Source of the DNA: an uncultured bacterium
Lineage (GTDB): Bacteria; Chlamydiota; Chlamydiia; Chlamydiales; SM23-39
Assembly: GCA_964594545.1 (NCBI GenBank)
Contig: CAZQNB010000001.1
Span: 23,358 to 87,357 of the forward strand
DNA length: 64,000 nt
Direction: 5' to 3'
Shown one piece after another: positions 6,001-12,000 of the stretch. Position numbers: made by a program. The first letter of the stretch is position 1. Each line of letters starts with the position of its first letter.

Positions 6001-9000
6001 AATAGTTAACCGATTTAACTAAGCTGGCTGATAAAGGGCTGAGATTATCGCTTACAAAAATAGCTGTTTTTCCTGAAGGGCAGGTATAAATCGTATTGTT
6101 TCCGCTGCCTAATGAAAGGAGCTTCGCAGTCTTGAAAGGAATATCCGAATCGAACTCCATGATGGAAATCCACACGTTGATTGACGACGTGCTTTGATTG
6201 GTCGAGATCGATTCGCCGGCTTCCAAAACGATGAGATTGACAATACCGCCTGCGCCTACCCCGATGGCTGTGGCTGTTTGAGTAGAATTCAGATTGTAAT
6301 AATTGCCTCCCGATTTGAGCATTGGAGTGATGCTTGCGCTTCCTGAAGGGGAGCAATAGCTTATCCCCATGACGGCTGCTCTTTTTCCTGCGGGGCATGT
6401 ATACCAGTCTACAGTTCCGCTGGCAGCTGGCAATCCTGAAATAGGAATGAAAGCCAATCCTGAAAGCTTATTGGTGTATCCAGCAGACATTGCATATCGG
6501 TTGATGAAATCTTGCACAGGCATATTACACCACCGTTAAGTTGCCGATTCCTGAAAGAACGAGCCAATCTGTATTGGCCGTAATACAAAGCAGGCGGACC
6601 GCATCATACCGTACTGTAGAAGCAACGCTCCCTCCGGCGCCGGATGTTGAGTCCACGCCATCCATGTGGATGATCTGTCCTGAGTTTTGCGCGATCTTCC
6701 ACCCGCCCGCTCCCTTTCCTGCCACTTCGACCACATCTCCGACCGAAGCGCTGGAAGGAAGGGTAACAGTGACGAGGCTCGCATTGTTTGCGATGTATCC
6801 GTTATTCGCAGCAGCTGATTGAGATGTTCCGGAAACTGTATTCCATGCGATGCCTCCGCCCCCGCCTCCGCCTCCAGCCGCCCATTTTACGCCGGATGCT
6901 TGCGTCGAATCCGCTGTTAAAACAAAAGTGTCTGCGCCGATCGATAGGGGGGAGAAGGTCCCGGCGCCCGTACCGATTAGGATTACGCCTTTTGCCGTAT
7001 AGTCTGCGAAACCGATCAGAGTATCTGCTGCTCTATTGGGGAATGTGTAGACTCCAGATCCTGCAAATTGATTGGTGAGGGTATAGTCGCCGTTTCCGTT
7101 GTGGGTGACGGTTCTTTTAGTTATTCCGCCTCCTATGCTGAACCCGACCAATAGATTAGAAATATCAAGATTAACTGCTGAAATGCTGGCCATTTTTTCT
7201 CCTTTTTATTATTCGAAGCACCCCCAAATTGGACTAATTATCACAAAAACCTACGCAGTTTTCTCTTGTGGTTTCTCTTCAGGTTTGTTGCTTAAAGCAT
7301 CCAGCAGCCTTCCCTTCACTCCAGCGTGATCGAATGGAATAAGAGGATCAACCCAGATATCCACTCCGGCTTCTCTCGCTTTACGGCAAAAGACATAGTC
7401 TTCTCCCCAGAATTCTCCTTCCCAAAGTTCTGTATTGAAGAAAAGCCAGCCGTTTTCTTTCTTCATGCTTTCATGTTTCGGCTCGAAATAAAGCTCAGGA
7501 AATTTCTTCATTAACTTTTCAATGACGCTTCTAGTCATCAACATAAAGCCTGCTGGGATGTATTGCATTTTCAATAAGCCATTTTCTTCTACGATCGACG
7601 AGTCATCGTTGTTAAATGTTCTAAAAGTAAATGTTTTACCGTCTCTTCCTGGGTAAACACCTGCTATAAATTCTTTGTCAGCCAGAAGCATCTTAAGAAC
7701 AAACTGAGGAACCCACCCAAGATCGGAATCAATGCATAGCAAATGAGTAGCGTCGCTTTGCATAAATAGCTTTAAGATTCGGTTTCTTTCTGCAACTAAA
7801 AGAGATCCAGAAGTGGTAATATTGTATGCGACTTGAACACCGTTATTTAAAAGAAGCATAGTAGTCTCTGATAAAGCGATCGCATAAGGTACATGAACGC
7901 TTCCGTCGTATGCTGGTGTTGCTATCATTACTTTTTTCATTTTTTTTCCTTGTTCGTGGTTGTTTGTTTTTGTTATTGAGCCTTGATATAAAGGGATCGG
8001 GAAAACATGTTTGCAGGCTCTTGCGTGATTGCCAACTGATTATCCATCGGCAATTGAAATTGAGTGCTAGTCGCATATTGATAATCAGTCGGAGAGGTAT
8101 AAATATATCCACCTTGTCCAACGGTTACAAATTTATTGTTAGCACTTATTACGTCCATAAGAGCAGAAGCATTTGTACTTGAACTAACATTATTATTTTG
8201 AATCCAATTTGTACCGTTTGTTGAAGTGAAAACAGTAGCTCCAATAATATTATTTCCTACAGCAACAAAAAGACCGTTATTAAATGTAACTCCTCTAAAA
8301 GCGGAAGGAAATGGTAAGACAAGTGGTGTTTGAACAGCCCAAGTGATCGCATCGTTCGAAGTCATGAAATTTCCAGCGCTATTTATCGCAACCCAAAGGC
8401 TGTTTCCATAAGTGACCGAATAGTTAAAACTTGAAGTTGGCGTCTGCCGTGCAGTCCAAGTAATCCCGTCTGTCGACGTTCCCATTAAACCGATTCCAGC
8501 AGCATAGACATAGAGGCTGCCGCTATAGGCGAAATCATAGATGTTATTAGGGGAATTACTTATGCGAGTCGTCCAGGTGATAGCATTCGTTGAGGTTTGA
8601 ATACCTCCGTTGAAATATCCAATGACAAATTTGTCAGTGTAAATTGCAGCCTGAACGGAATCCGTGTCATTTAATCCAGGAAAGTTTTTAGTCCAGGTTA
8701 TACCGTCGGTCGAGGTTAAATGCGTGTTTGCTCCGACAGCATGGAATAAAGTTCCATCCCACACAACGCTATTCAAAGCAGAAGTCGTGTTGCTTGTTCT
8801 GGCCGTCCAAGTAATCCCGTCCGTTGAAGTTCTTAAAGAACCACCGGCGCCTACGGCTACAAAGATAGAATTTCCAAAGATCACTGCATTGATTACGCTT
8901 GCTGTCCCGGAAGTTCTAGCCGTCCAAGTGATCGCGTCTGTTGAGGTCGCAACGTTTCCGCCTGATCCTGCATAAAGGTAAACGCTTGCTCCGAAAGTGA

Positions 9001-12000
9001 CGGTGTTAATTGTCGTGGTAGCAGGGGTTGTAAGTGTTCTGGATGTCCATGTAACCGCGTCTGTAGAAGTCGCTAAAAACGCTTGACCTGCTGAAAGGAA
9101 AAGAGCGCTGTTTAAATAGGCGACTTTATTAATTTGAGTAACAGTTCCAGAGTTTTGAGTTGTCCACGCAATCCCGTTTGTAGATGTTTCCATCACCCCT
9201 AATTGACCTGCCGCCAAAAATTTTGAAGCGCCATAAGCTAGGGTGTAAATAGTCGAGGTAGTTCCGCTAGGTCTTGCCGTCCAAGTAACTCCATCTGTAG
9301 AAGTCGCAATATTTCCATTCGATCCACCCATAACATAAAGACCGCCGCCATATGCTATGGCATTTGCAGCCACGCTTGCAGGCCAAGCAATAATAGGTGC
9401 TGTCCATCTATTACCATCGGTTGAAGTCGCATTGTTTGCGCCTCCTAGCCATACATATTTTTGACTTGGTGTTGCGCTATAAATGATATCTCCTGAAAGC
9501 CCTGGAAGCATCGTATACCAGCTGATCGCATCGGTAGAAGTAAGCATTGTAGCACCGTTGCCGCCAACAAAATGCACGCCATTTCCATAGGTTCCAGCTA
9601 GTAATGATTTATCTGTAGGAGTTTTGCGAGGCGTCCAAGTTACTGCATCAGTAGAGGTGAAAATATTACTTAAGGCGTACGCAACGAAAAGTCCATTTCC
9701 ATAATGTAAACTTGTAAAGTTCGCGGTTGTTCCCGAGTATTGCTGAATCCAGTTTTGAGCTGGGCCGTTCAGAAGTCCGACTTGAGCAAATAAAGCAGGA
9801 AAAGAAGCTTGGGATAGAATGCTTCCATCGCATTTTTTCCATCCTAGAGCAGTGAAAGCGGAATCTCCACCGGCATTAGCGAAGTATTGCATGGAGCCGA
9901 TTGCGCCGCCATTCTGAGCATCGACGTAGCTTTTAGTGGCAGCTTGAACAGGGGTTGTGGGGTCGCCATTTAAAAAAAGGTTTCCCGTCATCGTTCCGCC
10001 GCTTAAAGGAAGGTGCGGTACGCCTGGATCGTTAACTGAATTGTTTTTTGGCATTTTTTCCCCTAAATTTGATTTTTTTATTAAAAGAGCCGGTTACAAA
10101 TAGCAACCGGCTCAAATCGTTAAACATAATTTAGGTTGCCTTGAGCGGAAAGAACCTGCCAATTTGTGTTTGCCACAGTGCAAACCATTCTCAAGCTGTC
10201 GCCGATGGAAGTTGAACTGATCGATCCGCCGGCGCCTACAGTAGTCGCAACGCTTCCGAATTGGATGCTTTGACCGGAGGCTTGGGCAATCGTAAAATTA
10301 TGGGCTGCTTGAAGGTTTGTGATCTCCAATACAGTTCCCACAGCTGCTGTCGAAGGAAGATTGAAGGTTAAATCCGCGCCGGAAGCATTCGAGAAATAAC
10401 CGTTTCCAGCCACCATTGAAACAGGGCCGGAAGTAGAATTAATCCAAGATGCGACACCCCCGCCGCCGCTTCCTCCGTTAGACGCCCACTTAACTCCTGA
10501 AGTTTGAGTTGAGTCGGCTGTTAAAACGTAGTTATCCGTTCCGACGGTTAAGGGAGTGAAAGTTCCTGCGCCGGTTCCGACGAGGATCACACCTTTTGCC
10601 GTGTAGTCCGCAAAACCTATCAAGGTGTCTGCTGCGCGGTTTGGGAATGTGTAGACTCCGGACCCTGCAAACTGATTGGTAAGGGTGTAGTCGCCATTTC
10701 CATTGTAGGTGACGGTTCTTTTAGTTGTTCCGCCCCCTATGCTGAATCCAACCGATAAGTTGGAAATGTCTAAGTTGACTGATGAATTATGAGCCATGTT
10801 CCTGCCTCTTTGTTGTTAATCGATGTTTGCGCTATCCATTCGGCGGGCCTTCCCGCTAGTTGAAGCGGATGCGCGTTTTCTGGTTTCTTGAGGAAGATTG
10901 TAAGAGGGGGAACAGAGGCATTGGGTTCATTGGGGATTTATTTCAGATGGCAGGAATTCCATTTTAAAGGGATTCTTAGCGAGTCTTCGAAGGCTCATGG
11001 CCAAGCTCCTTTCTTTTTTGTTTTTTCAATGGCTGAGCCGGCTCCTGCAAAAGGATGTACTCTTTGCTTTGCTGGATGAGCTGGACAAGCAAGCCTTCTA
11101 AAGTTTCTAGCCGGTTCCTCATCTGTTCGACAGCCTGCTGCAGAGCGAACATGCGGTTGACTTCCACTTGCTGCTGGAGAAGCATTCTTTTCGGAGCGCA
11201 ATCAGAAATGACTTTCGGCTGTCCGGTTCCTCCTTCCTGCCACCATGATTCCATGAAATTTGGGCATTCCCTTTCAGTAGCGCACAATTTGCTCTTGACG
11301 AAGGGGCAGTTTTCTTTGCATGAAGTACAGTCCATTGGGTTCTCCTTTAATGAATTTTTAGGGTTGTTTTTGGCATAAAATACCTGTTGCAGCTAAGGGC
11401 CTCCATGAAGCGCCGTGATTGTGGGCTTGGCTTCCACCCACGCTAGAGGTCGTTGCAAAGTTGGTTCCGCTTTGATTCGTGCTTCCCACTCTTTGAGAAA
11501 GATTTCCCTTTTGATCCGATTTGTAGAGAGTGATTTGGTGGGTATGGGCTGGGATTTGATCGGTCGTAAGAGTGTGATCCGCTGTCTGCCACGTTCCTTG
11601 AGGCAGCGCGCCTCCAACTGTGTAAGTGGATCCGCCTTTGACTCCTAGAAGGCAGTCGCCGACGGGGATCGTCACCCATCCGCTAGGGGCCACATCTTGG
11701 TAGAACCAAAGCTGGGTGCCTGCGGCAAAGCTGACCTGGTCGAATCTAATCTGATAATTCGTCGAACCTCTTCCTATGACAAGCAAGTCATTGTTGAGGG
11801 CTGTGCTTGGAAGAGGATCGAATAGCGAAATATCAAAATTCCTTATTTGGGCAATGGTTGCCTTTTTATCGGTAAATCCTTGATGAACGATGGTGAGATC
11901 ATTTGCCGGGTCTATTACGTCTACGGGATCAAGATCGCTTATTAATACTGGTGTGCTCATAGTTTCTCCTTAGGACGGAATAATTTTTGATTGTCCCCAA

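Follow-up and report, generated by a model that had tools for sequence, protein, structure and literature searches.

Gene content of the fibre locus

We analysed a stretch of 64,000 nucleotides (hereafter the window) from an uncultured bacterium of the Chlamydiales lineage SM23-39, namely positions 23,358 to 87,357 of contig CAZQNB010000001.1 in assembly GCA_964594545.1. The window carries the structural module of a predicted contractile-tailed phage, and our subject is the fibre locus at the distal end of this module. Here two related genes, which we call A and B, lie in the same orientation on either side of a gene encoding a propeller-type repeat protein (the propeller gene) and a gene encoding a possible glycosyltransferase (GT; the GT-like gene), and B is followed by three tandem paralogues of another kind (Table 1). 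An earlier note on this DNA proposed that direct repeats of about 330 bp at the starts of A and B encode a common attachment module joined to alternative receptor-binding heads, and that recombination between the repeats could delete, duplicate or exchange the intervening segment and so act as a host-range switch.

According to Pfam matches, the structural module encodes a portal, a Mu-F-like protein, the major capsid, a cement protein and a neck terminator; the tail and baseplate part encodes DUF3383 (sheath-like), a Dit-like protein, an E217-gp41-type hub, Baseplate_J and DUF2612, and a large terminase is found further on. The genes neighbouring A and B gave weak matches to tail-fibre families of PHROGs. 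The predicted phage has PB1/E217-like baseplate genes and a contractile tail, and is found in Chlamydiota metagenome-assembled genomes (MAGs).

Table 1. Features of the fibre locus, with positions in the window
Feature	Position	Strand	Remarks
Gene A	10120-10797	(-)	225-aa short fibre-like protein; opens the variable fibre locus
N-module of A, codons 1-105	10483-10797	(-)	Putative lineage-specific anchor (residues 1-58) and widespread fibre shaft unit (~59-105)
Gly-rich linker of A, residues 106-114	10456-10482	(-)	SNGGSGGGG; recurrent mosaic junction
C-domain of A (A-type tip)	10123-10455	(-)	Beta-sandwich predicted by AlphaFold2
Hairpin	10087-10113	(-)	11-bp stem and T-run, immediately behind the stop codon of A; accompanies the A-type tip
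Propeller gene	7973-10054	(-)	693-aa repeat (propeller-type) fibre protein with fibre-like N-terminus; at least 10 units of 117 nt
GT-like gene	7251-7940	(-)	229-aa protein, possibly a GT-A-type glycosyltransferase (weak support); PHROG matches
Gene B	6525-7193	(-)	222 aa; paralogue of A
N-module of B, codons 1-105	6879-7193	(-)	86.7% amino acid and 77.5% nucleotide identity to that of A
Gly run of B, residues 107-114	6852-6875	(-)	Eight glycines; mosaic junction
C-domain of B (B-type tip)	6528-6851	(-)	44% identical to the A tip
Three tandem paralogues	4304-6523	(-)	250, 246 and 241 aa, two beta-sandwich domains each; preceded in all loci of the phage lineage by a B-type tip gene
Upstream conserved genes	10976-12437	(-)	Left border of the variable region; conserved in all relatives

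Two paralogous genes under purifying selection

Proteins A and B are identical at 97 of their first 114 residues, which is exactly the count given in the earlier note, and at 91 of the first 105. Over their full length they are 65% identical by BLASTP (E = 1e-89), far beyond chance, and are thus paralogous. At the nucleotide level, the ungapped alignment of 10456-10797 with 6852-7193 has 262 identities in 342 positions (76.6%), and the 330-nt span considered in the earlier note has 253 (76.7%); the repeat is real, and the identity of roughly 80% estimated there becomes about 77% when measured. A repeat search of the window returned the pair as a direct repeat of 300 nt with 78% identity and a spacing of 3604 nt, confirming both the orientation and the bracketing of the segment between. 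Past the Gly run the proteins continue, as had been described, into related and clearly different C-domains, in which 46 of 103 residues (44%) and 50% of the nucleotides are identical.

Protein A has 353 database homologues. Neither A nor B matched a curated family in Pfam (E <= 0.01), NCBIfam or PDB sequence and profile searches, and a profile of 30 family sequences found no PDB chain at E <= 1. PHROGs gave a weak match to one family of unknown function and nothing else. Among the phages of INPHARED, no match was obtained by megablast of 4000-13500 or by tblastn of protein A.

Nei-Gojobori counts over codons 1-105 of A and B gave a proportion of synonymous differences (pS) of 0.675, which is saturated (dS ~1.7), and a proportion of nonsynonymous differences (pN) of 0.072, corresponding to a dN/dS of ~0.04. 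Purifying selection on the protein therefore accounts for the likeness of the two N-modules, which does not stem from recent duplication or homogenisation. In other genomes with two full N-modules pS is 0.57-0.84 and nucleotide identity 68-79%. When orthologues are compared between genomes, pN is 0.03-0.04 against a pS of ~0.6 for A as well as for B, indicating that both genes have been kept functional.

Anchor, shaft, hinge and tip

A profile search gave 14,469 cluster representatives. The tip domain is found in thousands of phage fibre-like proteins, almost always as the extreme C-terminus of proteins of 150-1300 aa, and is usually preceded by profile positions ~59-110. This shaft unit of ~50 residues is itself present in thousands of proteins, with up to 23 tandem copies in one giant protein, and also occurs N-terminally or internally in other fibre-like proteins. 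Since it is so widespread, the N-module is best described as a lineage-specific anchor (residues 1-58) joined to one common shaft unit (59-105). With this number of cluster representatives, the knob domain at the tip belongs to a very large family, so far unnamed, for which there is no Pfam model.

In an AlphaFold2 (AF2) monomer model of A, built with a 30-sequence alignment, residues 117-225 form a confident beta-sandwich with a predicted local distance difference test score (pLDDT) above 90. Foldseek searches of the PDB with this tip ranked N-terminal fragments of TSP4, from the branched tailspike complex of phage CBA120 (Ackermannviridae), first (7REJ/7RFO/7RFV; E = 1.5e-5 to 6e-4; TMq 0.34-0.39). 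Next in rank were a baseplate chain of Klebsiella phage KP1, a tailspike, a capsid spike and CpaA (6O38, E = 0.098). Against BFVD there were 167 matches at E <= 1e-3, mostly to uncharacterised Caudovirales proteins and some to annotated tail fibres.

We mapped the genes of the fibre region onto approximately 40 related loci from IMG/VR, GTDB genomes, JGI metagenomes and Logan contigs, mostly Chlamydiota MAGs; individual loci are given L numbers below. Where a relative has an N-module in first position, it is 91-98% identical to that of A at the amino acid level and carries either an A-type tip (90-97% identical) or a tip that we call X-type (43-46%). In two loci of a second lineage, L080 and L081, both paralogues carry a different N-subtype, and the first is still joined to an A-type tip (76% identical). 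Homology in blastn to relatives with other tips stops at 10484-10461, at the Gly run of A, and homology to B-type tips on short, different N-termini (L069, L071, L075) begins at 6888-6879, at the Gly run of B; in many comparisons of locus pairs the Gly run is where the breakpoint lies. Within this phage group, three or more different N-termini carry the tip domain. Because the N-module stays 91-98% identical whatever the tip, and because the breakpoints lie at the Gly run, anchor and tip are separable modules and the C-domain is a shuffled terminal one. As regards module sharing and the position of the junctions, the idea of a common anchor with alternative heads is thereby borne out; that the heads bind receptors is something we infer.

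Layouts in related loci

The conserved frame in relatives runs from Baseplate_J through to the counterparts of the genes at 11970, 11358 and 10976, followed by the variable region and then ParA. In the main lineage a full-length member of the A/B family stands at the head of the variable region, in L005, L072 and L084 with nothing but a short-N-terminus member before it. In relatives such a full-length gene is found immediately downstream of the homologue of 10976-11335. The layout of the window (A, propeller, GT-like, B, three paralogues) is shared by L067 and L002, and the fragments L082 and L094 agree with it; B orthologues are 90-99% identical in L002, L067 and L082. Loci L068 and L001 have A, a diverged propeller gene (47% identity), a GT-like gene and another gene, with neither B nor the paralogues. 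In L074 and L090 an X-type tip gene is followed by a C1q-like gene, B with a full N-module and the three paralogues, and L162 has in addition a gene for a 981-aa protein between the C1q-like gene and B. In L004, L069-L071 and L086, X and the C1q-like gene precede a B-type tip on a short, different N-terminus and one or two paralogue triplets. Longer combinations occur in L014/L075, L084, L072 and L089, and X is followed by unrelated small genes in L006-L016 (except L014 and L015), L073, L076, L085 and L087. In the second lineage two family members lie ~55-60 nt apart and are followed by a propeller-like and GT-like pair (L080) or by three paralogues (L081).

The cargo between two full N-modules thus varies and may be the propeller and GT-like pair, a C1q-like gene, a C1q-like gene with the 981-aa protein, or nothing. 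The comparison of the 7.2-10.1 kb segment among relatives, suggested in the earlier note, accordingly gave the same arrangement in L067, L002 and L082, and other cargo or none elsewhere. Cassette exchange stands in this weaker form: the slot between the N-modules holds different cargo over evolutionary time, with breakpoints at module borders. Throughout the main lineage, the three paralogues come after each B-type tip gene and the propeller gene after each A-type one; wherever the related loci have a propeller gene, the GT-like gene is there as well.

Compensatory changes preserve the hairpin behind A in L067, L002, L068 and L001 and, just behind the first fibre gene, in the distant L080 and L081 too. 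The hairpin is conserved after every A-type-tip gene checked except that of L003, where a different hairpin is found, and it is absent after X-type tips in the relatives checked. The T-run that makes it terminator-like is present in the lineage of the window and not in L080 and L081. Based on the layout of L080 and L081, and on the hairpin travelling with the A-type tip, we suggest that the layout of the window may derive from tandem paralogues through insertion of the propeller and GT-like cassette behind the hairpin; alternatively, events may have run the other way, with L081 losing the cassette.

A probable pair of short fibres on one particle

We consider it probable that the paralogous, co-oriented genes A and B encode two short tail fibres with a like anchor and different tips, giving a polyvalent particle without any switching. 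Each protein is built from four parts, an N-terminal anchor (1-58), a shaft unit (~59-105), a Gly hinge and a beta-sandwich tip of ~110 residues, and would presumably assemble into a trimeric fibre. Both are probably made and mounted on the virion via the same kind of docking contact. Shared docking would account for N-modules that are ~87% identical despite synonymous saturation, and with its two tips the particle would have two specificities simultaneously. Modules have been exchanged between related phages along the Gly hinge and the gene borders, and the propeller and GT-like pair is one of several alternative cargoes between or after fibre paralogues. The best-supported account of the repeat is that it reflects a shared structural constraint, hence ordinary modular phage design and no working recombination switch.

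Several points weigh against this reading. The best PDB match of the predicted A tip is the N-terminal assembly region of TSP4 and not a receptor-binding domain, and the TM-score is low (0.38). B-like tips with 55-66% identity end long fibre-like proteins (249-762 aa) on unrelated metagenome contigs, a conservation across very different phages that exceeds that of typical hypervariable receptor-binding tips. AF2 gave no confident monomer model for the N half of A (pLDDT ~50), which would be understandable if this half folds only as an intertwined oligomer. Finally, the strong terminator-like hairpin after A could mean that the downstream genes, B included, are expressed differently.

It is conceivable, although we doubt it, that the N-modules and Gly hinges are portable homology arms, with which related tailed phages or phage-plasmids co-resident in environmental chlamydiae trade cassettes of a tip plus an accessory gene, occasional intragenomic conversion included. 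The cassettes would then be the propeller and GT-like pair, the C1q-like genes and the lectin-like triplets. If true, a tailed-phage lineage infecting obligate intracellular bacteria would possess a natural means of swapping cassettes by which its adsorption specificity is set.

Another possible, if rather improbable, role for A and B is that of branch-point adaptors. Their C-domains would dock the downstream products, the propeller protein in the case of A and the three paralogues in the case of B, in a branched complex like that of TSP4-N or gp10, and would themselves bind no receptor. The top fold matches of the tip in the PDB, the assembly region of CBA120 TSP4 and the Klebsiella phage baseplate chain, speak for this, as does the presence in TSP4 of an anchor, a tetra-Gly linker and domain XD1 (PMC8825819). 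Each family member also precedes a set of putative binding proteins, and in the main lineage the pairing of B-type tips with three paralogues and of A-type tips with the propeller holds always. The pairing fails in the second lineage, however, where an A-type tip gene lies directly before the second paralogue without a propeller gene in L081, and the propeller-like and GT-like pair follows a different tip type in L080. A general rule that the tip docks the product of the next gene was rejected, being broken by L080, L081 and distant metagenome loci. Furthermore, B-like tips end long fibres of distant phages without downstream paralogues, and the domain is C-terminal in nearly all of its thousands of homologues. 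The TSP4 docking domains XD2 and XD3 are absent from A and B, XD1 is regarded as a spacer, and Pfam and PDB searches gave no sequence-level link to gp10 or TSP4. L080 and L081, and likewise the placement of the domain at the C-terminus, weaken the adaptor role.

The repeat as an unlikely recombination substrate

A switch driven by the repeat is unlikely, and we give it little weight. It would require the ~330-bp direct repeats to recombine often, deleting or duplicating the A tip, the propeller and the GT-like gene and so producing subpopulations that differ in host range. The direct repeats do bracket the segment, and the cargo between two full N-modules does differ among relatives. The DNA identity is only 77%, however, with pS saturated, and the longest identical tract between A and B is 19 nt, which is at chance level (mean 16.5 for permuted codon columns, P = 0.25). 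Efficient RecA-type exchange usually needs ~25-30 nt of identity, and 19 nt falls below this. Recent gene conversion as the cause of the likeness was rejected overall on pS and on the length of the longest tract.

Within genomes, codons 16-55 have a lower pS (0.44 in the window and 0.34 in L074) than the 0.7-0.9 seen in the flanks and between genomes, and over these codons the nearest neighbours of B are A genes of its own clade and not the B orthologue in L002. This patch of ~120 nt is weakly compatible with an old conversion, a hint in favour of exchange that is drawn from ~30 synonymous sites.

The layouts are against the switch too. The order A, propeller, GT-like, B is unchanged in L067 (96% DNA identity), L002 (~80%) and the fragment L082, that is over 4-20% DNA divergence. 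The predicted crossover product, in which the homologue of the 10976 gene would be followed by an N-module fused to the B tip and then by the three paralogues, was found in none of the ~40 loci. L068 and L001 keep A, the propeller and the GT-like gene without B, a layout that a crossover between A and B is unable to yield. The repeat search found no significant inverted repeats flanking the locus, and there is no site-specific recombinase near it, the only candidate being a tyrosine integrase at 41275-42252, ~30 kb away. The deletion and duplication switch proposed in the earlier note is thus not supported.

The view that B is a redundant or decaying recent copy of A with no separate function, suggested by paralogy and by similar size and build, is rejected, as synonymous saturation points to an old duplication, both reading frames are intact and under strong purifying selection (see the orthologue comparisons above), and B orthologues are kept in several diverged relatives.

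Neighbouring genes

The 693-aa product of the propeller gene matches the Pfam family DUF6242 in seven stretches (E = 1.4e-10) and, weakly, Collar. The BNR Pfam model gave no match in this protein, and 'beta-propeller-type, Asp-box-like repeat protein' is a safer label than BNR. Compared with L068 and L001 the first ~100 aa are conserved and the remainder is 47% identical. The 229-aa product of the GT-like gene matches phrog_1574 (5.7e-30), which is of unknown function, and phrog_34859, annotated 'glycosyltransferase' (2.4e-8). As the protein has no Pfam, NCBIfam or PDB match and the PHROG link to that annotation is the weaker one, the glycosyltransferase label is tentative. The two genes reported in the earlier note are therefore present between the repeats, whereas their labels, BNR propeller and glycosyltransferase, are unconfirmed by curated models.

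The three paralogues downstream of B are 35-45% identical to one another, and each contains an internal duplication with the motif YTCPxGK occurring twice. The predicted structure of the 250-aa paralogue has two beta-sandwich domains (pLDDT 82, predicted TM-score (pTM) 0.81). With this structure Foldseek found generic two-domain beta-sandwich matches only (PHM, carbohydrate-binding modules and a viral coat protein; TM <= 0.44), and no family assignment was found for the three proteins. Two triplets in a row occur in some relatives (L069, L070, L086).

The conserved genes upstream of A encode a 119-aa protein, a 200-aa short fibre-like protein with a Gp10_C/tail-type C-terminal end, and a 155-aa protein with a tail-fibre N-terminal motif.

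Small C1q/TNF-like proteins of ~165 aa recur beside fibre genes of the A/B family, sometimes three in tandem. Examples are L069 10703-11206, L074 10701-11201, L162 3346-3846 and many metagenome loci (L112, L121, L124). Pfam C1q (PF00386) was identified on the product of L162. The window itself encodes no C1q/TNF-like protein.

Phage and host setting

In species-representative genomes, protein A has 13 relatives, nearly all of them in Chlamydiota MAGs, labelled Parachlamydiaceae, Rhabdochlamydiaceae or 'Chlamydiae bacterium'; 2 of the 13 carry the label Verrucomicrobia. One of these two is L067, which is 96% identical to the window over 13.4 kb. To our knowledge, the characterised phages of chlamydiae are microviruses. 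A literature search for tailed phages of chlamydiae turned up only groups of phage-derived genes on chlamydial plasmids, where such gene sets have been reported. As relatives are found almost only in Chlamydiota MAGs and the characterised chlamydial phages we know of are microviruses, the fibre locus would be the place to look for how a tailed phage recognises chlamydial cells.

The fibre locus is directly followed by a gene for a ParA-family partition ATPase (1766-2545 (-)). This gene is conserved in relatives, and many of these are contigs of ~41-45 kb. Conserved ParA and contigs of this size suggest a phage-plasmid lifestyle. In L076 (14800-19600), on a Parachlamydiaceae contig of 350 kb, a truncated ParA comes after the fibre locus, and beyond it lie chromosomal genes for a Na+/H+ antiporter and DprA, which fits a prophage that has integrated or decayed.

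Between the portal (28460-29917) and the large terminase (44344-45693), the window contains a block of ~14 kb (30000-43700) with a G+C content of 36-41%, against 45-50% elsewhere. It encodes an ATPase, an MFS transporter, a NorB-like oxidase, GlgC, the tyrosine integrase mentioned above and an AbiEii toxin. Either an island that entered the phage or a chimeric assembly may explain the block. The phage arm past the terminase encodes an 824-aa Hsp70/MreB-like protein, an AAA ATPase and a Cas4/RNase-H-like nuclease (52040-54514, 49048-50121 and 55525-57021 (-)).

Comparison with known systems

The N-terminal region of CBA120 TSP4 consists of an anchor domain, four consecutive glycines and the domains XD1, XD2 and XD3 (PDB 7REJ/7RFO/7RFV; PMC8825819). 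CpaA is listed there as an XD1 homologue, and XD1 is taken to be a spacer, while XD2 and XD3 dock (PMC8825819). Like A and B, TSP4 thus has an N-terminal anchor, a glycine run and a beta-sandwich of ~100 residues. Given the co-match to 6O38, XD1 is the presumed counterpart of the A tip. In CBA120, as in the phage studied here, the baseplate module also ends in several tandem genes for receptor-binding proteins (predicted ones in our case), and conserved N-terminal parts are combined with swappable distal modules. Unlike TSP4, A and B end after one domain of ~110 residues, without XD2/XD3 or a catalytic beta-helix body; there is no detectable sequence homology, and the TM-score is 0.38. Moreover, two separate small proteins here share an anchor type, whereas in CBA120 one protein carries others. 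T4 gp9 and gp10, which contain an XD1-type domain, likewise have no Pfam or PDB sequence link to A and B, and they are not duplicated with alternative C-domains. Lacking XD2/XD3 and sequence homology, A and B do not qualify as members of the gp10/TSP4-N family.

In the phage Mu G segment with Gin, and the P1 C segment with Cin, inverted repeats and a dedicated serine invertase swap C-termini onto one constant part. As in A and B, alternative fibre C-terminal parts lie beside a constant N-terminal part, and in Mu and P1 the host range depends on the one used. The locus described here differs in having direct repeats with 23% divergence, of which each copy is a whole gene, and in the absence of a nearby invertase.

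A single phage genome may encode two or more receptor-binding proteins that have a conserved N-terminal anchor, as with the two tailspikes of SP6/K1-5-type phages and the 'anchor-branch' depolymerases of Klebsiella phages. These systems and A/B have in common an attachment module that is shared or reused, distal parts that differ, a polyvalent particle (in the case of A and B, a predicted one) and exchange of modules among relatives at linkers. A and B differ from them in being very small (222-225 aa), in having a lectin-like knob and no enzymatic spike, and in having hosts that are apparently Chlamydiota. It is well known that phage host range is set by receptor-binding proteins and that these are modular, and conserved N-terminal attachment parts with swappable distal modules, as well as several receptor-binding genes per phage, are already well established. 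Within this framework the locus is a clean natural example, with a minimal fibre present twice and the points of exchange located at single-codon resolution across ~40 relatives; its more unusual aspect is the chlamydial host context.

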